This document shows, piece by piece, positions 2,836 through 50,272 of a stretch of 64,000 nucleotides of DNA. The position numbers were made by a program, and so were the translations under genes. Each line of letters begins with the position of its first letter. Position 1 is the stretch's first letter. The stretch covers positions 1-64,000 of the forward strand of contig JBOEGD010000010.1 of NCBI GenBank assembly GCA_050633245.1. The letters run 5' to 3'. Origin of the DNA: Calditrichia bacterium (lineage in GTDB: Bacteria; Calditrichota; Calditrichia; RBG-13-44-9; J075). Under the pieces are notes generated by a model. It made no database searches. It was not told where the DNA came from and saw nothing but the letters and a program-made list of their open reading frames with translations.

Positions 2836-3993
2836 ATGTTTAGAACCAGCTTAATAATTCTTGCAGTATTTGCAGCGTTGGCATTTGGCACCACCTATGT
2901 TCTTCAGTCTGATGCCGTTGTTCAGGTCTCTAATTCGGTGCGGGTTGCCGAAGCAATGAGTAGTAGCGATACCACCGGCTACGCTCGGGCAGTGGAAACC
3001 ATCGAGTTTGAGTTTCCGCAAGACCATGGCCCACATCCGGATTTCAAAACAGAATGGTGGTATTATACCGGAAATGTTAAGAGCAAGAGTGGCAGACGCT
3101 TTGGCTATCAATTCACCATTTTTCGCATCGCTCTCTCCCCTACTCCGGCAGAACGCACATCGGACTGGGCAACGTCTCAAATGTATATGGCGCACTTCGC
3201 CTTATCCGACCTCGATGGTGGAGAGTTCTATAGTTTCGAACGATTTAGCCGCGGAGCACAAGGTCTGGCGGGCGCGCAGTCGGTTCCTTTTCGCGTGTGG
3301 CTGGAGGATTGGCAGACAAAAAATGCACCGGGTAGCAAACCGTTATTTCCGAAACATTTTCTCTCTGCCTCCGGAAAGAATGTCTCAATAAACTTGACGC
3401 TTGAAAGTACGAAACCGCTGGTCTATCAAGGCAAAAACGGCCTTAGTCAAAAGAGTAGTGAGCGTGGAAATGCCTCTTATTATTATTCTATGACGCGTAT
3501 TAAGACCGATGGCACAATTACGATTGGCGATGAAGAGTTTGAGGTATTCGGTTGGTCCTGGAAAGATCGCGAATGGAGTACCAGCGCGCTGGCGGAAGGA
3601 CAGGTTGGCTGGGATTGGTTTTCGCTACAGCTCTCGAATGGTGAAGAGATCATGTTTTTCCAGCTGCGAAACGAAGATATATCCAGGCCCCCCTTTAGCA
3701 AAGGAACGGTTGTATATAAGGACGGGCAATCGCGTCAGATAAAGAACGGTGAGGTTCTTTTAGAAGAGCTGTCGATCTGGGAGAGCCCGCACGGCGGAAA
3801 GTATCCGGCGCGCTGGCGTTTTCAGATTCCCGCAGATTCTGTTGACATTGAAATTCGCTCCAATTTACCCGATCAAGAGCTGGATGTTTCGGTGCGTTAT
3901 TGGGAAGGCTCTGTTTCTATCGATGGCAAGCGTGGCAGCAGCAGTATCTCCGGCCACGGCTATGTTGAGATGACGGGGTATGGGGATAGATGA
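2836..3993 (+). CDS. AttH/CrtC-like lipocalin-fold secreted protein
   Basis: FPQDHGPHPDFKTEWWYYTG, W-x-DREWS, GWDWFSLQL, YWEG and GYVEMTGY motifs; N-terminal hydrophobic anchor; follows ABC ATPase/permease as in attEFGH-like loci. Confidence 0.85.
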   Translation: MFRTSLIILAVFAALAFGTTYVLQSDAVVQVSNSVRVAEAMSSSDTTGYARAVETIEFEFPQDHGPHPDFKTEWWYYTGNVKSKSGRRFGYQFTIFRIALSPTPAERTSDWATSQMYMAHFALSDLDGGEFYSFERFSRGAQGLAGAQSVPFRVWLEDWQTKNAPGSKPLFPKHFLSASGKNVSINLTLESTKPLVYQGKNGLSQKSSERGNASYYYSMTRIKTDGTITIGDEEFEVFGWSWKDREWSTSALAEGQVGWDWFSLQLSNGEEIMFFQLRNEDISRPPFSKGTVVYKDGQSRQIKNGEVLLEELSIWESPHGGKYPARWRFQIPADSVDIEIRSNLPDQELDVSVRYWEGSVSIDGKRGSSSISGHGYVEMTGYGDR

Positions 3994-4139
3994 GTGGGTG
4001 AGCGGGAGAGCGGGCGAAAAGGCGGCAAACAACAGACGGCAGAGAACGGACTTCAGAGTAAATTGCCTCATTGCCTCATTGCCTCATTGCCGTCTTTCAC
4101 TTTTCACTTTTCACTTTTCACTTTTCACTTTTCACTTTT
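3992..4139. repeat. Composite short tandem repeat tract (8-mers and 7-mers) between convergent genes
   Basis: GAGYGGGN x3 (3992-4015), degenerate AGACGGC/AGAGAAC 7-mers (~4020-4047), ATTGCCTC x3.7 (4062-4091), TTTCACT x6 (4095-4136). Confidence 0.9.
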
Positions 4140-4155
4140 ATGAACTCTGAACAAT

Positions 4156-5442
4156 TCAAACCTTTTTCGCCAGCAAAATCTTGTGTCGCATTTCAACAGA
4201 TTTACGGTGCCCCTGCAGGCCCTCAGCGGAAGCAAGCGTTTTTGCAGCATCTCCGATGTGCTTCAATCCTTCTTCATTCACCGATAATGTGGTTTGCAGT
4301 TTTATAAAATCCAACACACTTAACCCCGCGCGATAGCGAGCAGTCGTATTCGTAGGCAGCGTATGATTAATTCCACTACTATAGTCACCTAAAACTTCGG
4401 CTGTAAGTTCACCAATAAACAGTGACCCATAGTTCGTCAGGTGCGATACAATCATATCCGGATTCTGTACTTGAATTTCAAGATGCTCCGGCGCACGACG
4501 ATTACTAATATCAATCGCTTCAATCATATCAGGCACTAAAATAATTGCACCATTGCGCGCCATCGATTCATAGGCAATGTCGGCGGTTCCCAGTGAGAGC
4601 AGCTGGAGTTTTATATGATGAACAACAGATTGTGCCAGTTTCTCGGACGTGGTAACCAGAATGGGGCTGGCATCACGATCGTGCTCAGCCTGAGCAATTA
4701 AGTCAGAAGCAACAACTTCCGGCCTTGCCGTTTCGTCGGCAATAATGAGAACTTCTGTCGGCCCGGCGATCATATCGATTCCCACAACACCAAAGACTTC
4801 TTTTTTCGCCTGCGCAACATACTTATTGCCCGGTCCGACAATTTTGTCAACACGCTTTACGCTGTCTGTGCCATAGGCAAGGGCCGCGATCGCATGTGCA
4901 CCACCCATAGCATAGATCTCGTCTATTCCAAGAATATCAGCGGCCACAACAATTGCAGGATGAACCGTTCCATTGGCAGTTGGAGGTGAGCAGACACAAA
5001 TTTGTTCAACTCCGGCAATTCGTGCCGGCACTGCGCCCATCAACAAGCTGGAGATAAGTGGAAATCCACCACCGGGAACATAAACAGCTACCCGCTCCAA
5101 AGGCTGTACACGCTGTCCGGCAGTCACTCCGGGCTGCACGTCCATCTCAAAGTCTTTAAAGGGTTCCATTTGCCGGGTGGCAAAGGTTTCCAAGTTTGCA
5201 ATCGACGTGCGAATTGCATCCTGAGTTGCCTGATCGACAGACTCGTAAGCTGCTGCAATCTTGTCTTTGGGATAGCGCAACGTCTCTAACGTAACGCCAT
5301 CGAACTGCATCGTATAGTCGACAATTGCCTGGTCTCCACGTAACCGAACGTCATCAATAATTTCTTTTACTGAGGCCACATCTTCTAATTCGCGATAAAT
5401 AAAAAATCCGTTCGGCAAATCCACACTGCGGATAATTCTCAT
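4156..5442 (-). CDS. hisD: Histidinol dehydrogenase
   Basis: YVPGG, KIVGPGNKYV, IDMIAGPTE, AQAEHD, APEHL and GDYSSGINHTLPT motifs. Confidence 0.97.
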   Translation of the reverse strand: MRIIRSVDLPNGFFIYRELEDVASVKEIIDDVRLRGDQAIVDYTMQFDGVTLETLRYPKDKIAAAYESVDQATQDAIRTSIANLETFATRQMEPFKDFEMDVQPGVTAGQRVQPLERVAVYVPGGGFPLISSLLMGAVPARIAGVEQICVCSPPTANGTVHPAIVVAADILGIDEIYAMGGAHAIAALAYGTDSVKRVDKIVGPGNKYVAQAKKEVFGVVGIDMIAGPTEVLIIADETARPEVVASDLIAQAEHDRDASPILVTTSEKLAQSVVHHIKLQLLSLGTADIAYESMARNGAIILVPDMIEAIDISNRRAPEHLEIQVQNPDMIVSHLTNYGSLFIGELTAEVLGDYSSGINHTLPTNTTARYRAGLSVLDFIKLQTTLSVNEEGLKHIGDAAKTLASAEGLQGHRKSVEMRHKILLAKKV

Positions 5443-6686
5443 TTAAATCTCCTTCGGCGGAGCTCATGCAGCACCTCCGATATGGTTACTTTCTTACTAG
5501 CCATTAAAACGGTTAAAAAATATAGAACGTCTGCTGCTTCCCAGACAATATGGTCGTGTTCTTCAGCTTCAATTACTTCCTGCGCTTCTTCAAGCAGCTT
5601 TTCTGCAAGAAGGTCCCCCTCAAGCAGTTTTGCGGTATATGAACCCGGTGTTGGCTTCTCCAGTCGCTCGCCAATCACATCATACAGTTCCGTCCATGAA
5701 AAATTTCGTTCTCCATAGCAAGAATATGATCCGGAATGACAGGCAACATCTGTCTGGTCTACCACAGCAAGTAAGGAATCGCGATCACAATCTGTACGCA
5801 ACGTCTTTAGTTGCTGAAAATGCCCGCTGGTTTCCCCTTTCACCCAAAGTGAATCGCGTGAACGTGAATAGTAGCACATCATACTTTCAGCGAGGGTCTT
5901 GCGAACCGCTTCGCGATTTGCAAATGCCTGCATTAACACTTGTCCATGTGAATCCTGTGTAATAACAGGCAATAAATCACTCTTCCAGTTGAGTGATGAC
6001 ACAAATGCATCAGCCAAATTAATCTTGCCGGTGTAAAGCGCCATACCGAGCTGAACATCCATATTCAATTTTGCAAGCTCTTCAATTTCATCAAGCGTGC
6101 TGACACCACCAGCAGCGGTAATCTTTACGTTTGTTGCCTCAGATAGCTCTTTCAGTTGGGCGAGATCGATTCCATCCATCATGCCCTCGCGTTCTACACA
6201 GGTGCAGAGAAATCCGCCGGCATACTCTTCAAGAGCCTTTGCAGCATCCATTAAGCGAATGCCTGTTTTATGCTTCCAGCCACGCGTAACGATTTCGCCG
6301 TGTAATACATCAACAGCAATAATAAGGCGGTCACGTGAAATCGCCTGAACCAGCTCTTCAAGAAAACCGGTATTTATCTTATCTTCTTCAAATGCTTTGC
6401 TTCCAATAATAACCTTACTTGCCCCAAACGAGATAAGCTCTTTAGCTTGAGAAACACTGCGTATACCACCGCCAACGCGACAAGGTGCCACTTTCAGCAA
6501 TTCGCGAATCAGCTCATTATTATGCGTTTCTCCCATTGCTGCATCCAGATCGATAACCGCAACTTCGCCATAGCGATGAAACTCTTTTACAAGTTCAATC
6601 GGATTGTCACGTTCGAGAACACGCTCTTTGCCCTGTCTGAGCTGCACGGCCTTGCCATTCTGTAAATCTATAGATGCGACTACCAT
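5439..6686 (-). CDS. hisA-hisIE: Fused HisA (ProFAR isomerase) - HisI (PR-AMP cyclohydrolase) - HisE (PR-ATP pyrophosphatase)
   Basis: N-terminal TIM barrel (SIDL, VIDLD, VGGGIRS, AAGGV); then YYSRSR...[17 protein letters not shown]...SC (HisI); then GSYTAKL...EEAQE...WEAADVLY (HisE). Confidence 0.9.
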
Positions 6687-7435
6687 CGTATCGATACCCC
6701 CTCTTCCTGCAGTTCAGATTTAATCTGTTCAACCGTATACTCTCCAAAGTGCAATAGAGAAGCCAATAAGACAGCATCACATTTTCCTTCGTGCACCACA
6801 TCAGCCATTTGCTTTGTGGTTCCAGCGCCACCTGAGGCAATCACCGGAATACTGACGCGCTCAGAAACCTGGCGTACCAGCTCAATATCATATCCGGCTC
6901 TGGTTCCGTCGCGATCAATTGAATTCAACAGAATTTCACCGGCTCCGCGCTCTTCGGCCTCAACAGCCCATTGCAGTACGTCACGTTCGCTTTGCTTACG
7001 TCCACCATGTGTGTAGGCAAACCAGGTGTCGCCATGCTGCTTGGCATCGATAGACAAGACAATACACTGTGCGCCAAAGGCATAAGCACCTTCATTTAGC
7101 AAATCGGGATTTTTAATCGCCGCTGTGCACATCGCAATTTTATCGGCACCGGCATGAAGGGACTGGCGCATATCCTCCACGCTGCGAACGCCGCCCCCAA
7201 CAGTAAGCGGAATAAACACCTCTCGGGAAACGCGCTCTACCACATCCAACATGGTTTCACGGCTTTTATGCGATGCACCGATATCCAGAAAGACCAATTC
7301 GTCAGCATTCTGATCGTTATAGTAACGAGCGAGCTCCACCGGATCTCCCGCGTCCATAATGTCTTTGAACTTAATTCCCTTCACCACACGTCCTTCATCG
7401 ACGTCCAGACAGGGGATGATGCGTGTTGCCAGCAT
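6680..7435 (-). CDS. hisF: Imidazole glycerol phosphate synthase cyclase subunit
   Basis: [12 protein letters not shown]...[28 protein letters not shown]; start moved to ATG 7435 (GGAGG upstream). Confidence 0.97.
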
Positions 7436-7578
7436 AATTCGGTTACCTCCAGCCACTTCCCGGCAGGAAAGTAGCGAAAAATACAAAGTTATTTCAGTTG
7501 ATTTGACGGACAGGTCAAAAATTCCGGGCGAATGATTTTAACGCGCTGTAAATCTACGGTCAAAACCGCGGTAGTGTC

Positions 7579-8181
7579 TTAGGAATACAACTCGACCCAA
7601 TTTTTTAGAAGCTGCATGCCGTTCGCAGCGCTCTTTTCGGGATGAAACTGCACCGCATGAACTCGGCCATGCTCTACCGCAGAAGCATACTGCACCCCAT
7701 AGTCGGTTGTTGAGCTAATAGTAGTCTCATCATCCGGCTTTACATAAAAACTATGCAGAAAATAGAAGAATGGGTCCTCAGGAAGATCTTTAAACAAAGC
7801 AGAGTCGTTTTGCGTTTGAATGCGATTCCAGCCAATTTGCGGCACCTTGTGCATGGTAAATCGCGGCACGCTTCCCTTAAAAAAACCTAAACCCTTAATG
7901 CCGGGAGACTCATCACCTTCTTCAAAAAGAAGCTGCATGCCAACACAAATCCCCAGAAAGGGTTTGTCCGCACGCAACCAGGCTAAGGTTGGCTCAAACA
8001 ACGAGCGCTTGTGCAACTCTTTCACCGAAGCCTCAAAGCTACCTACTCCGGGAAGAATAACCTGGCTGACGTGGCTGAACTTGCTATCATCTTTTAACAA
8101 AATACTTTCAACACCAAGATGTTCCAACGCGCGAACAACTGAACGCAGATTCCCGGCGCCATAATCGATTACGCCAATCAC
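7579..8181 (-). CDS. hisH: Imidazole glycerol phosphate synthase glutaminase subunit
   Basis: IDYGAGNL, LPGVG, LGICVGMQ, YFLHSF, QFHPEKS; GTG start at 8181 overlaps the hisB stop (GTGA). Confidence 0.96.
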   Translation of the reverse strand: MIGVIDYGAGNLRSVVRALEHLGVESILLKDDSKFSHVSQVILPGVGSFEASVKELHKRSLFEPTLAWLRADKPFLGICVGMQLLFEEGDESPGIKGLGFFKGSVPRFTMHKVPQIGWNRIQTQNDSALFKDLPEDPFFYFLHSFYVKPDDETTISSTTDYGVQYASAVEHGRVHAVQFHPEKSAANGMQLLKNWVELYS

Positions 8182-8765
8182 AGTGCCCCCTTGGTGCTGG
8201 GAATGTCTTCCGGTGAGCGCGGGTCGATTTCGCAAGCCATGCGCATTGCTTTAGCAAAGGCTTTGAAAACGGCCTCGACCTTATGATGATCCGAACGACC
8301 ATAATGTATCTTCACGTGTAGATTAATGCCCAGCGCATTCACAAAGCCAAGGAAGAAGTCTTCCAACAGCTCTAGTTCTAACTCGCCCACCTTAAGGTTT
8401 TTAAACTCGGCATCCCAGTGCAAATGCGGACGCCCTGAAATATCGACAGCTACTGTGGCAAGTGCCTCATCCATTGGATAGACAAAAAATCCGGCGCGAC
8501 GAATACCACGCTTCTCTCCCAGCGCTTCTTTAAAGGCCTGTCCCAGGACAATACCGCTGTCTTCCACGGTATGATGTCCATCTACCTCAAGATCGCCCTT
8601 GATTTTCATCGCAATATCAAACAAGCCATGACGCGCCAGCGTGTTCAGCATGTGATTCAAAAAGCCGATCTCGGAGGAAATCGTTCCCTTGCCGCTGCCG
8701 TCCAGGTTTAACCTGAGTGCTATAGTTGTCTCGCTGGTTTTGCGCTTGATTTCCGCTTTACGCAT
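8178..8765 (-). CDS. hisB: Imidazoleglycerol-phosphate dehydratase (monofunctional)
   Basis: RKTSET, FLNHML, DGHHTVED, SDHHKVEAVFKA, IPSTKG; no N-terminal phosphatase domain. Confidence 0.97.
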   Translation of the reverse strand: MRKAEIKRKTSETTIALRLNLDGSGKGTISSEIGFLNHMLNTLARHGLFDIAMKIKGDLEVDGHHTVEDSGIVLGQAFKEALGEKRGIRRAGFFVYPMDEALATVAVDISGRPHLHWDAEFKNLKVGELELELLEDFFLGFVNALGINLHVKIHYGRSDHHKVEAVFKAFAKAMRMACEIDPRSPEDIPSTKGAL

Positions 8766-10483
8766 TACAGCACCTCTTTTAATTGATTGACGTTTGTTAA
8801 AACGCTTGCGGCTCCTTCAGCAGCCAACAACGTTTCCATTTCTTTATCATGCTGCGACTGCGGTGCCAACACGCCAATTGCGCGCATACCGGCAGACTTA
8901 GCGGCCTTCATATCGTCTACCGTATCTCCAAGGTAGATAGCGCGATGCACACCTAGCTTTTGCTTTGCCAGCTGCAGCCCATGAGGTTGTGGTTTTTGCT
9001 TCTCCCCCATATCTTCCATGGCTATCAGCGCTTTAATATGGCCTGCCGAATCATGTCGGCGGAGTACGTATTCGGCTTCTTCGCGCGGACGTCCCGTTAC
9101 AACACCGAGTGAATAGCGACTTGCGAGGTCTGCCAGGAGCTGAGCTGAGAGCAGCCATTCTTCACCGGCAATGAGCCCATCGAAATTGGCTCCGCGATAG
9201 ATTTTCTGAAAGACATCAATAATCTTGTCACGGTCTGTGGGCTTTCCACGTTCCGCCAACAGAGCTTCGGTGCAGTCCCAGTCATTATTGAAGCCGCCAC
9301 GTCGCTTTAATGATTCAATTTGTTCAAAAGATACATCAGCACCTAAAAAATGTTCGGCAGTCTGTTTTATCGCCATGCGATACGATCGAGATTCATCGAC
9401 CAACACGCCATCCATATCAAACAAAATCGCTTGTGGAGAAAGCACTTCCGCTAATGCATTCAGCAGAGCGTCGTTTTGCTCTCGCATACCGATGGCCACG
9501 CGAAAGCAGCCTCCCAGATTTGGCAGTTTGTTCAGGTTCTTCACCAGAATACCACGATCAATCAACGCTTTATGCACACGATCAGACTCATCCCCAATTT
9601 GCAGAAGATGGAAATTGGCAGCAGCACCTCGGCATTCAAGGCCAAGCTTTTCAAAGCCAACGCGAACATAATTGCGTTCAACCTCCAGTTCGGCGACAAC
9701 GCCTTCAAGAAAGGATTTGTCACTCATTGCAGCAGAAGCAGCGATAACGGCAAGACCATTAACAGAGAATGGCGGATTCACCTTGCGCATTTGCTCGATA
9801 AATGCCGGACAAGCAGCCGTTACTCCAATGCGCAAACCAGCCAGACCGTACGCTTTCGAAAATGAACGCAGCACAATCAGGTTGTCATATTTGGCTTGGA
9901 GATCGAGACAGCTTTCGCCCAAAAAGTGGGTATAGGTCTCGTCAAGCATTACCAGCGTATTTGGCGTATGTTCCAGCAAGCGAATCAGCTGTTCGCGAGA
10001 AATAACCGCTCCGCATGGACTGTCTGGTCTTACCACCGCGACCAGACGCGTCGCATCATTTATTTCTGCTATAAATTTGTCTATTGGAAAGGACAGATCG
10101 GCTTCGTAGACGATTTGCTGCACGTCCGCGCCAACAACACGAGCATGTAAATCGATCATCCCAAAGCTGGGATAGGCGAGCAGCACCTGGTCTGCAGGAT
10201 CGATAAATGTTTGCATAACTGCACGAATTGCATCATCAGCGCCATTGGATATTAACAGCTGCTCCTGAGGCACTTCGAGGAACTGCGAAAGCTGCTTCAT
10301 AAACCCATTGTAGTCTGGATAAGCAATAACCTCGAGGTCATCGATTCTGTTCAGCGCCTCCATGACGGTGGGTGAACAACCCCACAGGCTCTCATTCAGA
10401 TCGAGGCGAATTTTATCCTTTCGCGTTGTAGCAATCAGCGGGTAGGCAGCAACATCCTGAACAGACTGTCTGGCCTTAATCAT
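8765..10483 (-). CDS. hisC: Histidinol-phosphate aminotransferase fused to a C-terminal HAD hydrolase (TIGR01548-like)
   Basis: LDLNE, SNGADD, LDETY, RSFSKAYGLAGLRIG (PLP lysine); then FDMDGVLVD, GGFNNDWD, VTGRP, KPQP, YLGDTVDD (HAD motifs I-IV). Confidence 0.9.
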   Translation of the reverse strand: MIKARQSVQDVAAYPLIATTRKDKIRLDLNESLWGCSPTVMEALNRIDDLEVIAYPDYNGFMKQLSQFLEVPQEQLLISNGADDAIRAVMQTFIDPADQVLLAYPSFGMIDLHARVVGADVQQIVYEADLSFPIDKFIAEINDATRLVAVVRPDSPCGAVISREQLIRLLEHTPNTLVMLDETYTHFLGESCLDLQAKYDNLIVLRSFSKAYGLAGLRIGVTAACPAFIEQMRKVNPPFSVNGLAVIAASAAMSDKSFLEGVVAELEVERNYVRVGFEKLGLECRGAAANFHLLQIGDESDRVHKALIDRGILVKNLNKLPNLGGCFRVAIGMREQNDALLNALAEVLSPQAILFDMDGVLVDESRSYRMAIKQTAEHFLGADVSFEQIESLKRRGGFNNDWDCTEALLAERGKPTDRDKIIDVFQKIYRGANFDGLIAGEEWLLSAQLLADLASRYSLGVVTGRPREEAEYVLRRHDSAGHIKALIAMEDMGEKQKPQPHGLQLAKQKLGVHRAIYLGDTVDDMKAAKSAGMRAIGVLAPQSQHDKEMETLLAAEGAASVLTNVNQLKEVL

Positions 10484-11334
10484 GCTACAACCTTGCGGAA
10501 ATCGTATTCCAGTATATCCCGCGCTCCCAAAGCCTTAAGCTTCGGAATTAAATTGGCGGCATCGATCTTTTTAACCGCGGCCTTCACAGAATAGCCTTCA
10601 TCATTATAAAGTGGCGAAACGGTCGGCGCTCGCATACATGGCAAAATGCGAATCACCTCTTCCAGCTGTTCCTTCGGGACGTTCATCTCTAACATAACGC
10701 GAACACGCGCATCGAGAATCGATTGAAAAAGCATCTGGATGCGCTCAACTTTAGCGCGTTTCCAATCATCTTCCAAGACAGCATGATTGGCAATAAGATG
10801 CGTTGATGACGACAGTACCTCGCCAATAACCTTCAGCTTGTTTTCAACCAGTGTGCGACCGGTAGACGAATTGTCTACAATCATATCGGCATCATCCGGT
10901 GGAAAAACTTCTGTTGCACCATGCGTACGCAGAAAGACATAATCGTAGCCTTGCTTGTCTAACCAGGCCTTGCAAATCGTTTCATATTCAGAGGCCACGA
11001 CTATCTTGCGCTTTTTTAGCTCTTTTTCATCGACTTCTTCCGGAATGGCGGCCACAATTCGCACCGGGTCGAACCCAAGCTTCATGACAGTTGCTACATC
11101 AGCGCCGGTCTCCGTTACCCAGTCAATACCGGTAAAACCAATATCGTGCGAACCCAATTCCAGCAGTGTCGGAATATTTTGCGGCTTCATAATTTTAACG
11201 CTAATTTCGTTATCACTTACGAAGGGGCGATAGCCGCGCTCATCGATATCCAAACGGATTCCAGCCTCGGCAAGAATATCCACAACCTTACGATGAATGC
11301 GGCCTTTCGGGATGACTACTCTAAGTTTTTTCAT
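10480..11334 (-). CDS. hisG: ATP phosphoribosyltransferase, long form
   Basis: IPKGRI, DIGFTGID, GATE, IVDNSSTGRTLVENKL, plus C-terminal regulatory domain (PCMRAPTVSPL). Confidence 0.96.
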   Translation of the reverse strand: MKKLRVVIPKGRIHRKVVDILAEAGIRLDIDERGYRPFVSDNEISVKIMKPQNIPTLLELGSHDIGFTGIDWVTETGADVATVMKLGFDPVRIVAAIPEEVDEKELKKRKIVVASEYETICKAWLDKQGYDYVFLRTHGATEVFPPDDADMIVDNSSTGRTLVENKLKVIGEVLSSSTHLIANHAVLEDDWKRAKVERIQMLFQSILDARVRVMLEMNVPKEQLEEVIRILPCMRAPTVSPLYNDEGYSVKAAVKKIDAANLIPKLKALGARDILEYDFRKVVA

Positions 11335-11425
11335 ATATCTTTTGCTAAGTTTTATTCATATTGAAAAGATTAAGTCGACAAATTAGCCACAAGCATTTCA
11401 ATAATAAAGCAGGAAGATTTTTACA

Positions 11426-11869
11426 ATGGTCAAAACGCTCATTACCCTAAATTTGGTATCAACGCTTGTGATGACAGGCGTAATTTGGATTGTTCAAATC
11501 GTTCATTACCCGCTATTCAAACTGGTTGGTGCAGAAAATTTTGCGCAGTATCAACAGCTTCACAGCAAGTACATCACGTTCATTGTTATGCCGCTAATGC
11601 TCATTGAATTAATCACTGCTTCGATACTGGCTGTCGTCCCTCCAAAGGGAATGCCGCAAGAAATGCTTTGGCTTGGCCTTGCTCTGGTCTTGGTTGTATG
11701 GGGAGCAACATTTTTCTTCTCGGTTCCACAGCACGCCATACTTAGCCGCGGCTTCGATGTCGATGCACATAATACGCTGGTAAGCACAAACTGGATCCGC
11801 ACGATCGCCTGGACGATCCGCACGGGATTGGTTATTTGGTTGGTGGGGGAATACTTTGGGGCATGGTGA
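11426..11869 (+). CDS. Small four-TM membrane protein of unknown function
   Basis: 147 aa, four hydrophobic segments, WIVQIVHYP and NWIRT motifs; AGGAAG upstream. Confidence 0.75.
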   Translation: MVKTLITLNLVSTLVMTGVIWIVQIVHYPLFKLVGAENFAQYQQLHSKYITFIVMPLMLIELITASILAVVPPKGMPQEMLWLGLALVLVVWGATFFFSVPQHAILSRGFDVDAHNTLVSTNWIRTIAWTIRTGLVIWLVGEYFGAW

Positions 11870-11870
11870 A

Positions 11871-11905
11871 AAAAGTGAAAAGGCAAAAGTGAAAAGGCAA
11901 AAGTG
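11871..11905. repeat. Heptamer tandem repeat AAAAGTG/AAAAGGC x5
   Basis: Five alternating 7-mers starting 1 nt after the stop of 11426..11869; reverse complement of the tract at 12385-12426. Confidence 0.92.
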
Positions 11906-11917
11906 AGTCAGCAAATA

Positions 11918-12277
11918 TTAACGTGTCGATCTAATTAGCCCGGTTAGCATCGCAAAAAGCGAGTTTAATCGGGAGTTGATCTTCTGCTGCTCACGAGAGT
12001 TTATATAGCCAAATCGTATCGCCAGCTCCAACTGAGTATCCAGCTCAACCAGGGAACTTCTCGCAATAACAAAAAAACGCTTTCTGTCATTTGGAGTTGG
12101 ACGAGATGCTCCCTCTGAGATATTTGATAGAACTGATAACATTGTTCGATTACTGTGTTTCGTCAGTTCATATTTCTCTTCCGATGGAAAACGACTTGTA
12201 ATTTGCTTTAAGTATTCTGCAAACAACATTCCTTGTTGCCAAACATCCAAAGACTTATGATTTAATTATAACAACAT
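11918..12277 (-). pseudogene. Four-helix-bundle protein (IVP/TIGR02436, bAvd-like) with in-frame TAA at codon 4
   Basis: AAGAGG RBS, then ATG(12277) TTG TTA TAA TTA AAT CAT AAG TCT TTG GAT GTT TGG = MLL*LNHKSLDVW; body has FP-x-EEKYEL, SNISEG, RFFVIARSSLVELDTQL. Confidence 0.8.
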
Positions 12278-12384
12278 TCGAAGCCTCTTTTACATATTCT
12301 TCTCAGATGCTTCTAAAATTTTGAAAAGCAGATCAACAAATCATCATTAGACATGCTTGGAAGTTTACTCGTTCAACGTTTGTC

Positions 12385-12426
12385 TTTTCATACCTTACGT
12401 CTCACTTTTCACGTTTCACTTTTGAC
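12385..12426. repeat. Degenerate heptamer tandem repeat (consensus KTTTCAC) x6
   Basis: ttttcat accttac gtctcac ttttcac gtttcac ttttgac, ending 3 nt from the stop of 12430..12882. Confidence 0.8.
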
Positions 12427-12429
12427 TTC

Positions 12430-12882
12430 TTACACACCAAATTGCCTCAAATGATGATCCAAATGTTTGGAAAATGAGACGTTCCATTCATCTTTTGTCA
12501 GCGGTCCGAAGGAGTGGGATTCTTTATTGTGGAAATGAGATTCGCCTAATTCCTGAGTCTTTCGGATATAGTCTATAAGACGCTTTTTTTCAGCTTCGAA
12601 ATCTTTATCGGCACCAACCAAAAACTGCGGTGCTGTGCGTCCATTTTGGGAGTATGGCTTAGGACCAACAACTGCACTTTTTATAAACATTTTCAGGAAA
12701 AAGCGACCGAATGCTCCTGGTTTGGGGTATTTATCGGTGTAGACCATCTCATAGGCGACAGAGCAATGTGCCAGCATTTCGGCGACGTTCATTTTACCCC
12801 ATTCCGGCTTCGTTTCAGCGGTGAGATTGTTAATTCTGGCGATCATTTCTTCTGTGTCCTGCTTGTTGAATAGATTTTTCAT
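12430..12882 (-). CDS. DUF1569 / DinB-like protein
   Basis: WGKMNVAEMLAHC, HSFGPLT...W...KHLDHHLRQFGV. Confidence 0.85.
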   Translation of the reverse strand: MKNLFNKQDTEEMIARINNLTAETKPEWGKMNVAEMLAHCSVAYEMVYTDKYPKPGAFGRFFLKMFIKSAVVGPKPYSQNGRTAPQFLVGADKDFEAEKKRLIDYIRKTQELGESHFHNKESHSFGPLTKDEWNVSFSKHLDHHLRQFGV

Positions 12883-13033
12883 CGGTGTTAACCTTTCAAT
12901 AGTACTGCGTATTTGCGAATCGTCTCCGACTGCATCCTGCAGATCAAAAACAGTATTTGCTTCCCCGACTAAAAAATAGTTCGCAATTTCAATAAGGTCA
13001 AGGTGAATTGTAGAGGCAGCGGGCAGAATTTAA

Positions 13034-13084
13034 ATTGGACAATGGACAATGGACAATCATAAATAATCATTCATAAATAATCAT
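13034..13084. repeat. AATGGAC x3 followed by TCATAAATAATCAT x2
   Basis: Read directly: 13034-13054 and 13057-13084. Confidence 0.8.
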
Positions 13085-13147
13085 TTCCCGTCCGATAATC
13101 TATCTCGTAATAATGGACTATTACATTTTTAGGGAAAGGGATTTGCT

Positions 13148-13399: not shown

Positions 13400-13400
13400 A

Positions 13401-40428: not shown

Positions 40429-40484
40429 CCTACCCCATTGCCATTCACTGTTGTATGTTAAAATAAAAACCGGAGCATTCTGCT

Positions 40485-41789: not shown

Positions 41790-41817
41790 TAACCTTATAA
41801 GAGCTGAATTATCCCGC

Positions 41818-41846
41818 TTGCAATGCCCTGGGGTGAATGTTATATT
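41818..41846 (+). promoter_or_regulatory. Probable sigma70 promoter for tig
   Basis: TTGCAA-17 nt-TATATT. Confidence 0.55.
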
Positions 41847-41898
41847 GTCTGCTCATTTTGTCAAAATAGCCTTACGCTAAAACGGAGAGAATAGTGCT

Positions 41899-43173: not shown

Positions 43174-43299
43174 TCGCAAAATAATGTACGGTTCTACGGC
43201 TCCAAACAGGCCGCTTGAACAGTGCAGGTCGAAAGCGTGACAATGAACAATTAATGAACCCCTTTAAGCAGTTACATTCTATTTTACGGAGGAATATCG

Positions 43300-43896
43300 A
43301 TGCCTTTAGTTCCAATGGTAATCGAACAGTCGGGAAGAGGTGAACGCGCATTTGATATCTATTCGCGCCTGTTAAAAGAACGAATTATTTTTCTTGGTAC
43401 ACCAATAGATGACAATATCGCCAGTCTTATTATAGCTCAGCTGCTGTTTTTGGAAGCAGATGACCCCGATAAAGATATCTATTTATACATAAACAGCCCC
43501 GGTGGCATGGTTACTTCCGGACTGGCAATTTACGACACGATGCAGTATATTAAGCCAGACGTTGTAACCAACTGCATTGGTCAGGCAGCAAGCATGGGTG
43601 CAATCCTTCTTGCAGCCGGCACCAAGGGAAAGCGTTTTTCGCTGCCAAACTCCCGAATTATGATTCATCAGCCTCTGGGCGGCGTTGAAGGTCAAGCAAC
43701 TGACATTGATATCCACGCAAAAGAGATTTTGAAGATTCGCAAGCGCCTGAACGAGATTCTGGCTGAAACCAGCGGACAATCAATAGAGCGCATCGAAGAA
43801 GATACCGATCGCAACTTTTTCATGACTGCCGCGCAAGGTCTCGAATACGGCCTGATCGACGAGATTCTGGTTCGTCGCAATGACGACAAAAAATAA
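43300..43896 (+). CDS. clpP: ATP-dependent Clp protease proteolytic subunit
   Basis: [34 protein letters not shown]. Confidence 0.98.
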
Positions 43897-43917
43897 CACG
43901 TTAAGTGGATACCGACC

Positions 43918-45165
43918 ATGTCTGACAGAGAATATTTCGAATATCAGTCCCAATGCTCATTTTGTAATCGCCGTGCCGACCAGGTAGCACAACTTGTTAC
44001 CGGTACGGCAGCAAGCATTTGTGAAAACTGTATTCAAAGTGCCAGTGAGGTACTGAACAAGTCCCGCTACAATCAGTTTCAAAAGGGTGAGTTCAAATTA
44101 CCAAAGCCACGCGAGATCAAAACCTTTCTCGATCAGTTTGTTATCGGACAGGATAAGGCCAAAATTGCCCTGTCCGTAGCGGTTTACAACCACTACAAGC
44201 GCATTACCCTCGAGTCTTTTGATGATGGCATAGAACTCGAGAAAAGCAATATTCTCATGATTGGCCCAACCGGAACCGGTAAAACCTTTCTGGCTCAGAC
44301 GCTTGCCAGACTGCTTCAGGTTCCCTTTTCAATTTCGGACGCCACAACTCTTACCGAAGCAGGTTATGTCGGTGAAGACGTAGAGAACATTCTGGTTCGC
44401 CTCTATCAATCTTCAAATTATGATGTCGCGGCTACACAACGCGGAATCGTCTATATCGATGAAATTGATAAGATTGCACGTAAATCAGGCAGTCCCTCTA
44501 TCACCCGCGATGTTTCTGGTGAAGGTGTGCAGCAGGCCTTGCTGAAGATTCTTGAAGGAACAGTTTCTGCAATTCCTCCCAAGGGTGGTCGCAAGCATCC
44601 TGAAGCTCCAATGGTTCATATCGATACCCGCAATATTCTGTTTATCTGTGGTGGTGCCTTCGACGGACTCGAACCAATTATTTCGAAGCGAATGGGCGAC
44701 AATACGATTGGCTTTGGAGCTCAACTTTCCTCTGAGGAAGAGCCAAATGAAAAACGTGCGATGGAACTCGTTGAGCCGGACGATTTAATGCATTTTGGGC
44801 TGATACCCGAACTGATTGGTCGGCTGCCGGTACTGTGTGGCTTACACCATCTTGGCGAGAAAGAACTGCTTGCCATTCTGGTTGAACCAAAGAATTCTCT
44901 CATCAAGCAATACAAGAAGCTTTTCTCTCTGGAAGGCGTCGAGCTGAAGTTCACCGAGAAAGCATTAAAAGAAATTGTGCGGCTGGCACATGAACGCAAA
45001 ACCGGCGCTCGCGGCTTGCGCAGCATCCTTGAGAAGGTGATGTTGAACGTAATGTTCGATGTGCCCTCACTCGACAACGCTCAGGAATGCTTGATTACCG
45101 AAAAGGTTATTCTTGGCAAGGCCGAACCTACGCTGAAAATGGGGAAATCCCGCCAGTCAGCCTGA
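43918..45165 (+). CDS. clpX: ATP-dependent Clp protease ATP-binding subunit
   Basis: CSFC...ICENC zinc finger, [25 protein letters not shown] loop, TGARGLR. Confidence 0.98.
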
Positions 45166-45280
45166 CCCGCTCCAACGTTTGCGGACATTATTTAGAGATC
45201 CGCTCGTATACCAAGTATAATAGAACTCCCGCTCCTTATTGCGGGATTTTTATTCTCAACACCACGGAAAATTCTACCCT

Positions 45281-47629
45281 ATGGAAAAAAAATCATCCCG
45301 CAGTAAAAGCGACGAGCTTCCGGAGATACCTCAAAAACTACCACTACTTCCAATAAGGGATCTGGTGGTTTTTCCGCATTCAGTAGTTCCTCTGCTGGTA
45401 GGACGAGACAAGTCTCTTGCTGCGATACAAAGCGCCAAAGAAAACGGCAACTATCTGATGGTAGCTACGCAAAAAGACTCTGAGAAAGAGAATATCAAAG
45501 CCAGTGATATCTTTCGCGTCGGAACCGTTAGCAAGATTTTACAGGTTTTAGAATTCCCCAATGGCCACTCAAAGGTGGTTGTAGAAGGTATTGTAAGAGC
45601 ACATGCCAGTCGCTTCGTGCGAAACAGCGCTTTCTTTCAAACGAACATCAACGTCTTTAACGAAGCTGACATCTTATTTTCAGAAGTACAGATTAAGCAG
45701 CTGTTCTACTACTTTCAGGAATACATCAACTTTACTCCGGAATTACCCGACGAAATTATAGAACACCTCCGTCAACAGGGCAGCCCACTACGAATGATCG
45801 ATTTTGTCGCACTGAACATTCAATCCGATACGCCTCAAAAACAGAAGATTCTTTCAGAAGCCGATCCCGATAAACGCTTACAGCTTCTGTTAGACACGCT
45901 ACAGCAGTTGATTGGTTATCATCGCGTACGCCAGGATATTGATTCACGCGTTCAGGAAAACCTTCTCAAGAACCAGCGTAATTATTATCTACAGGAAAAG
46001 CTGCGCGTCATCAACCGCGAGCTGGGTGAGGAAGAAGAACAGTCCCCTGAGATTTTAAAGCTCGAAAAAGATCTGGAAGCAGCAAATTTACCTGAGCACG
46101 CTCATGCCAAGGCCAGTGAAGAATTACAAAAACTTAAGAAGATGCCGGCATTTTCACCGGAATACACCGTAGTTCGCAACTATCTTGACGTTATGCTTCA
46201 AATCCCATGGACAAAGCAGACAGAAGATCAGCTGGACATCAATAAAGCGGGAGATGTGCTGGATCGCGATCACTATGGCCTTAAGAAGCCAAAAGAACGC
46301 ATTCTCGAACACCTCGCTGTTTTAAAACGCGTCGGCAGTATGAAAGGCCCAATACTTTGCCTGGTTGGCCCTCCGGGGGTCGGTAAAACCTCGCTTGGTA
46401 AATCGGTAGCTGAAGCATTGAATCGCAACTTTGTGCGCGTTTCGCTTGGTGGTGTTCGCGATGAAGCAGAAATTCGCGGTCATCGTCGCACCTACATCGG
46501 CTCGATGCCTGGTAAAATCGTTCAATCGATGCGTAAGGCAGGCACGCGCAATCCGGTCTTCCTGCTGGATGAAATAGATAAGATGACTTCCGACTTTCGC
46601 GGCGATCCCGGATCAGCTCTCTTGGAGGTGCTCGATCCGGAACAGAATAAAACCTTCAACGATCACTATCTGGATGTCGATTACGATCTATCCGATGTGT
46701 TTTTTATTACAACAGCCAATGTGCAGAGCCAGATTCCCCTCCCCTTGCAAGATCGTATGGAAGTGATTCAACTGCCCGGTTATCTGGAACATGAGAAGGT
46801 TCGCATTGCTGAAGACCACCTCATTCCCAAACAGCGCAAAGCACATGGTCTTTCCGCCAAAGAAATGGGCTTAAAGCGTCCGGCACTACTACGCGTTATT
46901 CGAGAATACACCCGTGAAGCTGGTGTGCGTAATTTGGAACGTGAACTTGCAAATCTTTGTCGTAAGGTTGTGAAACAACTCGCCTCAGACAGCAAGAAGA
47001 AGTCAGTAAACATTGCAGCAAGTAAGATTGGAGACTTTTTGGGCAAACCGAAGTTTCTCGATCGCAAGGCCGACCTTACCGAAGCCGTTGGTTCTGCTAC
47101 CGGCCTGGCCTGGACGGCCTATGGCGGTGACGTTCTAAAGATTGAGGTGAGCATGCTTCCGGGTAAAGGTAAGCTAAGCCTAACCGGAACGCTTGGTGAT
47201 GTAATGAAGGAGTCGGCTCAAACAGCACTCAGCTTTGTGCGATCTATTGCCAGTGACCTGAAGATTTCGCATAAAACATTCGAAAAGAACGATCTGCACA
47301 TTCACCTGCCGGAAGGCGCTGTGCCAAAGGATGGTCCATCTGCCGGCGTTACGCTGGCAGTTGCGCTAATCTCGGCTCTTACCGGACGACGCGTACGTAA
47401 TGATATTGCCATGACCGGTGAAATCACCTTACGCGGACATGTTTTAGCCGTTGGCGGCATTAACGAAAAGCTGTTAGCCGCTCAGCGTAACGGTATCAAA
47501 ACGGTCATTTTACCGGCAGAGAATGAAAAGGAAGTTGATGATTTGCCTAAAGAAATTTCCGATGGTATCACAATTGTTCAGGCCAAGGAATTTAAGGACG
47601 TTATGAAAAAAGTTCTTCTAAAAGCCTAA
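45281..47629 (+). CDS. lon: Lon protease
   Basis: [35 protein letters not shown] (catalytic Ser), GGINEK; ATG 45281 preferred. Confidence 0.97.
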
Positions 47630-47650
47630 CTTTTATCTTGGCCATCCCCC

Positions 47651-47694
47651 TATAAAAAAGGCCGTTCCGTAATTACGGAACGGCCTTTTTTATA
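47651..47694. terminator. Bidirectional terminator (perfect 44-bp palindrome)
   Basis: TATAAAAAAGGCCGTTCCGTAA/TTACGGAACGGCCTTTTTTATA. Confidence 0.88.
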
Positions 47695-47724
47695 TCATAA
47701 TAGTTGACGCATAGCTTCACTACA

Positions 47725-47833
47725 TCTCACGTCTTAAAACTACCGTTTTCTATCTTGCGTCTCTTTTCTGCCGTCTGTTATCTTACGTCTTCTATCTTAC
47801 GTCTTCTATCTGCCGTCTTCTATCTTACGTCTC
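47725..47833. repeat. About 16 heptamers arranged as 14-nt units (TCTTACG/TCTGCCG + TCTTCTA)
   Basis: About eight 14-mers, decaying leftwards, abutting the esterase stop codon at 47834. Confidence 0.92.
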
Positions 47834-48562
47834 TTAGATTTTCTCCAGAAAATAGGGTAACATACTACGCCATGTCGGCCAGTCGTGGCCCATATCGTGT
47901 CCCCACAGATCCAGCCAGTGCGGAATGCCTTTACCGTGCAATACTTCAGAGAGTTGCACCGAGCGCTCCGGCGCCTCGTAGTTACCCTGCCCGGTGGCAA
48001 TAATAATCCGCTTGTTGTTGCGCATCTGGTTAAGCATATGCTCATCATTCCAATTCGACAAATAATCTACCGGTGAGTTGAAGTAGACATTTTCATCGAA
48101 GTACCCTTTGGAGTAGGACTTCAGATCATAGCTGCCACTCATTGCGATGGTTCCGGCAAACAGATCAGGGCGGCGAAAGAAGTTATTCGCACAGTGCAGT
48201 GCTCCAAGAGAAGCACCAGTCGTCACAATCGGAACCTCACTCTGGCAGTGTGTGTGAATAAACGGCACCACTTCCTGAGTAATGTAATTGTTGTACTGCT
48301 GATGTCGCACCGCCTTGTCGTAGGGATGCATATTGTTGTTCAACCAGCTTTCATTGTTGATGCTGTTGATGGAAAAAGCTTTCATTTTTCCGGAATCAAT
48401 GAAATGTCCAATTGCATCGATCAGCTGAAATCGTTCATATTCCAAAAAGTCCGCAGCCGCAGTTGGGAACATCAACAGAGCATTGCCATAGTGGCCGTAA
48501 ACAACAATCTCCATATCTTTGTGGAGATTGGGGCTCCACCACTTGTGAATTTCTCTGTGCAT
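47834..48562 (-). CDS. Alpha/beta-hydrolase esterase family protein
   Basis: YGHYG...FPT, TGASLG nucleophile elbow, HDWPTW; ATG 48562 with AGAGGA. Confidence 0.88.
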   Translation of the reverse strand: MHREIHKWWSPNLHKDMEIVVYGHYGNALLMFPTAAADFLEYERFQLIDAIGHFIDSGKMKAFSINSINNESWLNNNMHPYDKAVRHQQYNNYITQEVVPFIHTHCQSEVPIVTTGASLGALHCANNFFRRPDLFAGTIAMSGSYDLKSYSKGYFDENVYFNSPVDYLSNWNDEHMLNQMRNNKRIIIATGQGNYEAPERSVQLSEVLHGKGIPHWLDLWGHDMGHDWPTWRSMLPYFLEKI

Positions 48563-48681
48563 AGGTAATCCTCTATATATGTTTTCTATTGTGTTTTTAG
48601 CTCGGTAGTCCATTTCTGAGCGAGAGAGGAAAATATACGAAGGGGATATGAAATCTCAATGGGTAAAAAAAAGTACAGGGC

Positions 48682-48847
48682 AGAACACAAAATACAGAAC
48701 TCAGAACTCAAATGGAGCGCGGGTAGCGGGTGAAAAGGCCACACAGTTAACGTATATGAGAGGGTGTATGGAAGATAAGGAGAGGGGCGAAAAAACGACA
48801 GATTAAAGACGGCATAGAATATTAATGCCTCAGTGCCTCAGTGCCTT
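48682..48847. repeat. Composite 7-/8-mer repeat tract similar to the tract at 3992-4139
   Basis: AGAACWC-type x4 (48682-709), GCGGGT units, GGAGAGGGGCGAAAAAACGACAGATTAAAGACGGCATAGAA, ARTGCCTY x3 (48824-47). Confidence 0.75.
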
Positions 48848-48915
48848 ATCAAAAAAAAAGGAGCCCCAAAACGAGGCCCCCACTCTAATATTGCTCAAGC
48901 TAATAATCAAATTAA

Positions 48916-49635
48916 TCAATCATCCCGAGTGACAGTTCCACTTACATTACGGATAGTGACACTGCCGCTACCGGCATCACCAACATAGACATCTTTCGAT
49001 ACCGTGTCAATTGTGATGCTACCACTGCCGTCATCTTCGATGACGACGCTACCATCGACATTATTGATCGTCAAGCTACCGCTGCCATCATCAACTTCTA
49101 CCGTACCGGCAATATCTTCGATCGTAAGTCGGCCGCTACCGTCATCAATGCGCAGCTTTCCTGCAATATTGCGAACCCTCAGCTCACCACTGCCATCATC
49201 AATCTCAACATCTCCACGGATATTCTCGATCAGCGTAGAGCCGCTACCATCATCAATATCCATATCCATTTGCTTTGGCACTCTCACTTCCAGATCGACT
49301 GATACATACCCACTGCCAAACCACCGCCAGTTGCTGGTGTTTTCAACTTTTAGTAACGCATTTTTACCACGCTGCTTTAATGTAAAAATCAGCTTCTTAT
49401 CCACGTAGGTATTCAGATCTTCTTCGTCCATATTCTTACCGGATATCTTGGCATGAACAGTAATCTCATCAGCACCTTCCACACCGGTAACGTGTAATTC
49501 ACCACTGCCTACATCGATTTTCATATAGTCAATTGAGTTGGCGTCTAATGTCAGGTTACGTTCGATATAATCTTGCGCCATCAGGCTCCCGCCCAAAATA
49601 AGGCTCATTAAGATAGTCGTAAACATTGTTTTCAT
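48916..49635 (-). CDS. DUF4097/putative-adhesin beta-helix protein
   Basis: ATG 49635 with AAGGAG; signal peptide; six ~18-aa DDGSG-x-(L/I)-x-I repeats. The ORF-track extension to 49977 is spurious. Confidence 0.82.
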   Translation of the reverse strand: MKTMFTTILMSLILGGSLMAQDYIERNLTLDANSIDYMKIDVGSGELHVTGVEGADEITVHAKISGKNMDEEDLNTYVDKKLIFTLKQRGKNALLKVENTSNWRWFGSGYVSVDLEVRVPKQMDMDIDDGSGSTLIENIRGDVEIDDGSGELRVRNIAGKLRIDDGSGRLTIEDIAGTVEVDDGSGSLTINNVDGSVVIEDDGSGSITIDTVSKDVYVGDAGSGSVTIRNVSGTVTRDD

Positions 49636-49699
49636 TTGAGTCTCCTTGCTTTTGCATTTAATCAGACTACTGGTATAACATGGAAAAAGTTGCATTTCG

Positions 49700-49748
49700 G
49701 CAAGTAGCGAGTGGCAAAAAGCTAGACGCGAGATGTCAGATGCGAGAC
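49700..49748. repeat. Degenerate heptamer repeat (consensus GCGAGAY) x7
   Basis: gcaagta gcgagtg gcaaaaa gctagac gcgagat gtcagat gcgagac. Confidence 0.75.
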
Positions 49749-49877
49749 GAGCCAAGCGTATTAAGTTCGGTTGGATTCTATAATAGCAGTTATCAAGGCG
49801 AATGGCGAATAATTTAATTTTCAAAAAAAGGTTAAAATGATAGAAGTAATAGTGAAACCAATTTGGAAGGTTATTGG

Positions 49878-50246
49878 ATGGCTCGTCTACTAAAATTATC
49901 TCATAAATCGTTGGATGCATGGAAAGAAGCAATGCTCTTGTTAAAATTAACTTATAAAGAAACATCTTTTTTCCCACTGGTAGAGAGGTACGGACTTACT
50001 GCGCACTGTAGAAAAACCGCAACCTCGATTGTATCAAATATTGCGGAAGGGGCATCCAGAAAGACAATGAAAGAAAAAGCGCGGTTTTTCGAGATCGCAA
50101 GATCATCCCTTGTTGAGTTGGACACTCAATTTGAAATAGCTGAAAGCCTAGGATATATGAATCACCATTCAACTGAAAGGCTTGTATCAAGCTTTGGAAA
50201 AACTTTTGCACTTATTTCCGGACTAATCAAAGCCAATCGAAAATAA
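49878..50246 (+). CDS. Four-helix-bundle protein (IVP/TIGR02436, bAvd-like)
   Basis: HKSLDAW, FP-x-x-ERYGL, SIVSNIAEGASR, RFFEIARSSLVELDTQ; ATG 49878 with GGAAGG. Confidence 0.92.
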   Translation: MARLLKLSHKSLDAWKEAMLLLKLTYKETSFFPLVERYGLTAHCRKTATSIVSNIAEGASRKTMKEKARFFEIARSSLVELDTQFEIAESLGYMNHHSTERLVSSFGKTFALISGLIKANRK

Positions 50247-50251
50247 ACTCC

Positions 50252-50272
50252 TTCTTGCGTCTTGCGTCTTGC
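50252..50272. repeat. Heptamer repeat KTCTTGC x3
   Basis: ttcttgc gtcttgc gtcttgc, 5 nt after the stop; complementary to GCRAGAC at 49700-49748. Confidence 0.8.

Follow-up and report, generated by a model that had tools for sequence, protein, structure and literature searches.

The stretch of DNA analysed here, 64,000 nucleotides from a Calditrichia bacterium (GenBank assembly GCA_050633245.1, contig JBOEGD010000010.1, positions 1 to 64,000; hereafter the window), comes from contig C10 of an assembly of 6.35 Mb in 59 contigs. Six of its intergenic sites carry short-period tandem repeats, and at two of these the repeats enclose a small gene for a four-helix-bundle protein. In the first, cassette 1, a purine-rich arm of AAAAGTG/AAAAGGC units (11871..11906, period 14, 2.6 copies) starts 1 nt past the stop codon of a gene for a 147-residue protein (11426-11869). 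The cargo gene lies on the minus strand (11918..12277), with an open frame of 110 codons from a TTG at 12250 (11918-12250), and the pyrimidine-rich arm of TCACTTT/CACGTTT units (12385..12428) ends 1-3 nt short of the stop codon of a minus-strand DUF1569 gene (12430). Cassette 2 consists of a purine-rich arm of degenerate GACGCGA/GATGCGA units (49711..49748), an intact cargo gene on the plus strand (49880..50246; the ATG at 49880 was taken from the sequence, the listed open reading frame (ORF) running from a TTG at 49863) and a pyrimidine-rich arm of TCTTGCG (50252..50275, 2.9 copies). Tandem tracts were called with Tandem Repeats Finder (TRF) at a score of at least 30 in the window, a threshold at which degenerate arrays are missed; the program delimits the two right arms as 12397-12428 and 50253-50272. 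It recovers seven of the eight tracts at the places given in the initial annotation, and the eighth (49700-49748), the degenerate left arm of cassette 2, falls below threshold yet is complementary to 50252-50275. The most probable reading, in our view, is that the two filled sites are cassettes of the type known as intervening sequences (IVS) of ribosomal RNA, lying here outside rRNA, and that the other four are orphan sites belonging to a class of heptamer repeats already described.

That one cargo family occupies both filled sites is confirmed by profile searches, in which the two products score 96.2 and 92.3 bits against PF05635 (cut-off 33.8) and 89 and 84.2 bits against TIGR02436 (cut-off 24). 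Residues 13-126 of the cassette 2 product match PDB entry 2GSC (XCC0516) with an E value of 2.9e-26. According to an account of the Coxiella IVS, this structure is a homopentamer of four-helix bundles (Lin et al., 2006, cited in PMC4990558), and the same account names the XCC0516 crystal structure as S23p of X. campestris (PMC4990558); by that account, too, the 23S-IVS/TIGR02436 family has been without known function since the rRNA IVS was described (Burgin et al., 1990, cited in PMC4990558). This genome holds ten PF05635 copies, of which nine have a tandem tract within 700 nt. The paralogs share a median identity of 27.6% (maximum 59%), and there is thus no sign of recent intragenomic copying. 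The closest metagenomic relative of the cassette 1 locus (L043), in which a neighbouring protein is 88% identical, carries an intact four-helix gene; when the two genes are aligned by codon, the proportions of nonsynonymous and synonymous differences are 0.09 (pN) and 0.74 (pS), with dN/dS about 0.03. By this measure the four-helix gene has evolved under strong purifying selection. The cassettes encode neither a transposase nor any other enzyme.

The two arms of a cassette are complementary to each other. As a measure of this, the 200 nt to the left of a gene were locally aligned to the reverse complement of the 200 nt to its right, and 600 genes served as control (median score 16, 95th percentile 22, 99th percentile 27). 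This alignment was used in place of RNAduplex, which on the same 200-nt flanks returned long noisy duplexes (control mean -68.7 kcal/mol) and was dropped. The arms score 34-36 for cassette 1 and 26 for cassette 2. The 95th percentile is exceeded at nine of the ten copies in this genome and at 21 of 28 loci in relatives, and the 99th at six and 19, respectively. Across the 4801 genes scored, 19 reach at least 30 and five of these are four-helix genes; the others are mostly flanked by copies of palindromic, terminator-like repeats. In predicted minimum free energy (MFE) and centroid structures the arms pair in cassette 1, cassette 2 and the L043 ortholog, where they have drifted and are still predicted to pair (z = -3.7). 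The initial annotation had supposed that the cargo is folded into a stem-loop, and for the filled sites this stands: complementary arms enclose the gene in a predicted stem. The purine-rich arm is on the left in 25 of 31 armed cassettes and the pyrimidine-rich arm in four, two being neutral, regardless of the strand of the gene. A left arm finds its best match in its own right arm in 21 of 39 cassettes and has it among the top three in 32 of 39, better-scoring foreign partners coming mostly from related cassettes, so that the repeat unit proper to each cassette, first noticed at the two filled sites, is a wider feature. Judged from these comparisons of sequence, a cassette is a four-helix gene set within complementary inverted arms of cassette-specific tandem 7-nt units, and the design recurs at most copies of the gene in the genome and the order.

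Matched arms in 9/10 and 21/28 copies rule out chance slippage as their source. The same counts argue against an alternative in which the genes are remnants of diversity-generating retroelements (DGRs), that is, orphan copies of the accessory protein Avd, and the repeats are unrelated products of slippage. Some similarity to Avd does exist (PF22296, E = 2.9e-4; NF033474, 30.1 bits), but both scores are far under the respective cut-offs of 40 and 80 bits, and the reverse transcriptase model PF00078 has no match anywhere in the 97%-complete assembly. The earlier remark that the window lacks a transposase or reverse transcriptase can in the latter case be extended to the whole assembly, and the cassettes themselves carry no enzyme. 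We regard a DGR origin as extremely improbable.

Comparison with relatives indicates what kind of unit the cassette is. Related genes (62-75% identity) keep related arm units in flanks without detectable homology, as in the locus pairs L017/L027, L035/L036, L022/L025 and L021/L029; in two of those genome pairs, both flanks of der and of aceE are conserved. On sequence grounds, then, arm units track the descent of the gene and not its surroundings. In the relative G019 a cassette lies inside an operon, between the stop codon of an ABC ATPase gene and the start codon of a permease gene. At the same site in G030 the ATPase and permease genes overlap (ATGA) with no arrays, and in G023 they are separated by an array-free spacer of 126 nt; G030 has its nearest relative of the G019 cassette on another contig. 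The insertion junctions are 67-72% identical, too diverged for a target-site duplication to be called. A second site lies upstream of the orthologous aldehyde dehydrogenase gene. Cassette 2 occupies it in this genome. G001 carries there an unrelated four-helix gene, disrupted by a frameshift, that is 25.7% identical to the cassette 2 gene and has different arms. In G003 the position is taken by a hairpin without cargo; its unit recurs in the intact cassette that G003 has elsewhere (L028), the gene of which is 72% identical to the frameshifted gene of G001. No cassette is present there in eight relatives with about 1.3-1.5 kb of upstream sequence, and two more show about 500 nt. Two cassettes of this genome lie at the 3′ ends of der and of aceE, and neither has a counterpart in the relatives: for each gene, 0 of 24 with sequence downstream of it (counts that leave out partial matches at four loci for der and five for aceE). 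In three genomes of a single genus, der is followed by inverted heptamer pairs that enclose no cargo. Filled and empty orthologous alleles, which had been expected of a mobile element, were therefore found, with G019 filled and G030 and G023 clean, and presence and absence are bounded by the arms. As far as these alignments tell, a cassette is either there or missing as a discrete block, with intact genes on both sides. The accompanying idea that they insert at the 3′ ends of genes did not survive: the ten cassettes of this genome occupy six co-directional, two convergent and two divergent gaps, close to the background proportions, and the clean insertion in G019 lies stop-to-start in an operon.

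For the site of cassette 1 (11871-12426) there is no same-genus genome, and the flanks of relatives are non-syntenic at 66-68% identity. Synteny aside, a four-helix gene occurs nearby in L043 only among 31 metagenome loci with a DUF1569 relative. The segment comprising the DUF1569 gene and cassette 1 is inverted between the window (11833-13106) and L043 (2740-4062), with both breakpoints in array-bearing spacers; on either side of the segment L043 has arrays of a single unit family as inverted copies, which could have mediated the inversion. A look-up of sequencing runs listed no RNA run and six runs that share only 5-10% of the words sampled. In run X3, where the flanking genes are 90-95% identical, a different 8-nt unit, roughly matched between the two sides, stands in place of the arrays around cassette 1, and the spacer at 13014-13107 differs in sequence from the window. 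This evidence consists of loose contig ends at 11863, 12437, 13014 and 13107; the interval 11955-12342 is uncovered in four runs and was not used as evidence. The replacement arrays in X3 begin in the last two codons of both neighbours (11864-11869 and 12430-12436), and the ORF for the 147-residue protein runs on into the array, so that arrays can rewrite C-termini. Elsewhere in this genome (G000), the cassette at C8:50391-50741 (L116 3892-4242) is opposite in orientation to the two same-strand genes around it, one for a histidine kinase and one for a sigma-54 response regulator. Several genomes have two or three cassettes grouped at intervals of a few kb (G029:C56, G030:C174 and G008 near 4.02 Mb). 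In fragmented assemblies, many four-helix hits lie no more than a few hundred bases from a contig end (for example G014:C143:270, G010:C103:5, G007:C43:204 and G015:C577:22), a position expected if repeat arms break assemblies.

We read the cassettes as IVS-type elements outside rRNA because they share with those elements the protein family, the stem and the heptamers, because an RNase III gene is present in this genome (C7:305970-306362) and because the cargo scores far under the cut-offs of the Avd models. The assembly yielded no 23S rRNA gene, and both cassettes sit between protein-coding genes. By analogy with the rRNA elements, a read-through transcript would form the long stem, which RNase III would cut, excising the cassette from the host transcript and either releasing or destroying the four-helix mRNA. 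Such excision would allow a cassette to sit harmlessly between or inside operons. Since the cassette has no enzyme of its own, its movement to a new site must depend on a host or trans-acting function, or on recombination through the arms.

Several observations weigh against this interpretation. One of the ten copies here (C7) and seven of the 28 in relatives show no arms that could be detected, and the fold of the whole cassette is only modestly better than that of shuffled sequence (z = -2.69 for cassette 1 and -0.78 for cassette 2), as the interior dominates the energy. A scan for promoters of the sigma-70 type gave none convincing inside either cassette; the gap that holds cassette 2 is divergent, and any transcript containing the 5′ arm would need a promoter, for which no candidate was found. 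A near-consensus promoter of this type (TTGACA, 17 nt, TAAAAT; 11/12) does lie just outside the right arm of cassette 2, at 50294-50322, upstream of the aldehyde dehydrogenase gene. The window copy of the cassette 1 gene, as sequenced, has an in-frame TAA at codon 4 (12266-12268, minus strand) where the L043 ortholog has AAG, the remaining frame being intact. Arm 7-mers are shared with 3-75 other arrays (background median 30), which means that the unit vocabulary is common to cassettes and orphans, and of this genome's 255 adjacent pairs of arrays about 10 are matched inverted pairs with no cargo, so the line between orphan and cassette is not absolute. (The loops of these pairs measure 5-60 nt and their units are mostly GTTCAAA/TTTGAAC or ATTGATG/TCATCAT, as at C20:85642-85753, C10:272991-273063 and C14:105575-105636.) Finally, the relatives stand at genus-to-family distance and are not independent, each locus being the best-scoring hit in its genome, and the gene calls are crude (longest ORFs, by which 89% of the genome is coding).

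The four remaining sites of the window lie among ordinary genes, the neighbours at the six sites encoding a CrtC/lipocalin-type protein, HisD, a DUF1569/DinB_2 protein, Lon, an esterase and an aldehyde dehydrogenase. The convergent gap at 3992..4139 opens with a purine-rich array of GAGCGGGA (3992-4014) at the stop codon of the lipocalin/CrtC-type gene (2836-3993), which it overlaps, and continues with pyrimidine-rich arrays of ATTGCCTC (4062-4091, 3.8 copies) and TTTCACT (4095-4139, 6.4 copies), ending 16 nt from the hisD stop codon (4156). Upstream of the DUF1569 gene, in a divergent gap, TRF finds TGGACAA (3.1 copies) and TCATAAATAATCAT (2.1 copies) at 13036..13085. A pyrimidine-rich array of CGTCTTCTATCTTA (47744..47832, period 14, 6.4 copies) stops 1 nt short of the stop codon of the minus-strand esterase gene (47834). 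The composite at 48695..48846 has CAGAACT (48695-48710, 2.3 copies) and purine-rich sequence, then TGCCTCAG (48826-48846, 2.6 copies), and precedes the terminator-like hairpin (48881-48859) of a minus-strand gene at 48916. Terminators with a hairpin and a run of T were seen after Lon (47650-47690) and after the gene at 48916 (48859-48881); arrays thus occur in addition to, and not in place of, intrinsic terminators. The five cases in which a tract had been said to begin close to a stop codon all hold in the sequence and the ORF list. The proposed order of purine-rich then pyrimidine-rich tract is seen in the window and throughout the genome, with weak support at 13034-13084, where the purine fraction is 0.71 from the unit and the 14-mer is half purine.

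These sites belong to a large population. TRF finds 1996 merged tracts in the genome, 777 of them intergenic, with dominant intergenic periods of 7 (304 tracts), 8 (97) and 14 (89); period-7 tracts number 304 between genes against 141 within them, in a genome that is 89% coding. At a TRF score of at least 40 there are 275 tracts of period 7 and 83 of period 8, against one and none after dinucleotide shuffling of the genome in 2-kb blocks. There are arrays in 465 intergenic regions, and they draw on 102 canonical period-7 units, the commonest being AAAAGTG, AACTCAG and AACACAG, without G runs; as most units lack such runs, G-quadruplexes are unlikely. Where an intergenic region has both tract types, the purine-rich one comes first in 47 cases and the pyrimidine-rich one in two. 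Arrays within 25 nt after a stop codon are purine-rich in the sense of the gene in 112 cases and pyrimidine-rich in 31, and in co-directional gaps arrays in the half nearer the following start codon are mostly pyrimidine-rich in sense (44 vs 15 and 29 vs 10). Divergent gaps have no polarity, and the rule therefore follows transcription running out of genes. Stop triplets within the arrays were considered as a cause of the purine bias (64 arrays have them in the sense strand only and 38 in the antisense strand only), but they do not explain it, since the 88 arrays in which both strands or neither contain a stop still show the bias (46 vs 13). Arrays upstream of start codons avoid ATG and GTG in sense (18 sense-only vs 53 antisense-only). 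Orphan arrays are, in sum, purine-rich in sense after a stop codon and pyrimidine-rich ahead of the following start, a polarity confined to gaps through which transcripts run. The genome-wide scan that had been proposed thus shows period-7 and period-8 repeats far above shuffled sequence and arrays that are non-random in polarity, close to stop codons and, as matched arms, present at nine of ten four-helix copies.

It is on the relation of this population to the cassettes that we depart from the initial annotation, which took the tracts to be ends of small elements, filled or empty. For the two filled sites that description is upheld, and for the four others it is not. Against the idea that all six sites form one mobile-cassette system, the cargo-less ones being footprints or landing pads, the halves of the "empty" sites in the window have unrelated, non-complementary units. 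None of these sites folds beyond its shuffles (z = -1.55 for 3992..4139, +0.33 for 48695..48846, +0.91 for 13036..13085 and -0.51 for 47744..47832), and the centroid structure of 3992..4139 is nearly unpaired. Among the 45 cargo-less regions in the genome with a purine-rich and a pyrimidine-rich tract, the median inverted score of 16 equals that of the control, with four regions above the 95th percentile and two above the 99th; 41 of the 45 therefore score like random flanks. Two arrays of the same intergenic region are no likelier to have a 7-mer in common than two arrays paired at random (10-11 of 173 pairs vs 6.4%), and arrays within 5 kb show at most a slight excess (27 of 297 pairs vs 6.4% between contigs). 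The clean empty sites of G030 and G023 have no arrays at all, and 574 arrays face ten cassettes. On the other side stand the cargo-less matched hairpins, of which there are about 10 pairs in this genome; the G003 hairpin, at a site used by the cassettes of two other genera and built of the unit of that genome's own intact cassette; the inverted heptamer pairs at the der 3′ end; the vocabulary that orphans share with arms; and the exchange of the arrays around cassette 1 in X3 for a roughly matched unit. We think a single system of this kind unlikely. The four orphan sites of the window are ordinary members of the genome-wide population of heptamer and octamer arrays, not empty cassettes, and most orphan arrays beside stop codons are not cassette scars. 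Six other small genes with tracts on both sides are ordinary housekeeping genes by eye.

Another explanation would unite arrays and genes through the protein, with each four-helix paralog binding in trans to arrays of its own unit, in DNA or RNA, as one regulatory system. It would account for an arm unit that tracks the protein lineage across genera in unrelated contexts, and for the purifying selection on the protein. The orphan units found most often (AAAAGTG, CAGAAC and ATTGATG) also occur in cassette arms of this genome, and among the Xanthomonas repeats listed by Rehm and colleagues, GGGAATC repeat no. 15 overlaps the start of XCC0516, a relative of the cassette 2 protein. Units so abundant would, however, adjoin any array-embedded gene by chance, and arrays near a cassette are barely likelier than others to share its units. 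Nor is there a clear link between array density and four-helix copy number: eight relatives, sampled over 32-100 kb each, have between 0 and 21.5 tracts of the period-7 family per 100 kb, and the sample from this genome gave 3.0 per 100 kb. We hold such a regulatory system to be quite improbable.

Returning to IVS-type cassettes outside rRNA, the gene and its matched-arm stem form a discrete unit that can be inserted, lost and swapped between ordinary genes, and because the arm unit follows the protein lineage, an IVP family without a function and a class of unexplained heptamer repeats become tied together. For annotation, orphan arrays next to stop codons are mostly not to be read as cassette scars. 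A bolder and rather doubtful extension is that enzyme-less, stem-enclosed cassettes constitute a widespread mobile family, which, with the protein as the factor that recognises the repeats, is the source or reader of heptamer arrays, the 23S IVS being one landing place. Were this so, it would cover the heptamer arrays of this genome, of Xanthomonas, of cyanobacteria and of others, and cassettes would travel with their own arms and could replace one another at preferred intergenic sites.

Several known systems invite comparison. Like miniature inverted-repeat transposable elements and other non-autonomous elements with terminal inverted repeats, the cassettes are small, encode no enzyme, end in inverted arms and are found or missing as a whole block; unlike them, their arms differ between copies in one genome and no recent copying is evident. 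The Avd proteins of DGRs belong to a related four-helix-bundle fold family, to which the cargo gives its weak profile matches, but Avd systems have a reverse transcriptase and a pair of template and variable repeats, both lacking from the cassettes, whose scores stay under the Avd cut-offs. Dispersed intergenic heptamers are a further point of reference, the short tandemly repeated repetitive (STRR) sequences of cyanobacteria being one example. Others are GGGAATC in Xanthomonas and GGGGA(C/T)T in Nostoc, reported to lie with the purine-rich strand within 50 nt after stop codons in sense, or upstream of ORFs in antisense, and to include 70-75 convergent inverted pairs (Rehm et al., 2015; PMC4692102), and the TAACTGA repeats, with related repeats in Beggiatoaceae, cyanobacteria and Bacteroidetes (MacGregor, 2015; PMC4679880). 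The arrays of this genome resemble the repeats of Rehm et al. in their period of 7, strongly intergenic location, hundreds of copies per genome, placement by polarity and frequent convergent inverted pairs, and differ in having about 100 units, mostly without G runs, in place of one dominant G-rich unit. Given these two descriptions, the orphan-array part of our data is a new example of a known, unexplained kind.

Among all of these, the ORF-bearing IVS of 23S rRNA (Coxiella burnetii helix 45; Leptospira; S23p/23S_rRNA_IVP) is the closest known relative of the cassettes. A full-text literature search, with subscription journals outside its coverage, gave no description of free-standing stem-enclosed IVP genes; one paper's annotation table merely lists such a four-helix gene between gmk and nadD. 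In Coxiella, as described in PMC4990558, the terminal repeats form a 28-bp stem containing tandem heptamers (GACAGAT repeats) that vary in number by strain, RNase III cuts within the stem, and the ORF-bearing IVS is regarded as a selfish insertion. The cassettes have the same protein family in the loop, and as in that account terminal inverted repeats form a stem around the ORF, with tandem heptamers in the arm and no enzyme encoded. They differ in lying between protein-coding genes and not in helix 25 or 45 of the 23S rRNA gene, and in their longer arrays, cassette-specific units and purine-then-pyrimidine polarity; excision by RNase III, described for Coxiella, would for the cassettes follow by analogy. 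Neither heptamer paper ties its repeats to a four-helix gene, to judge from the text of MacGregor (2015), in which "23S" does not occur, and from the table of Rehm et al. (2015), in which XCC0516 is merely "conserved". That table (supplementary file 2, row 27) nonetheless places GGGAATC repeat no. 15 at 6 nt from bccP (XCC0517) and over the annotated start of XCC0516, and since XCC0516 is, by the match to 2GSC, close to the cassette 2 protein, the heptamer literature and the IVP literature are tied together at this gene.

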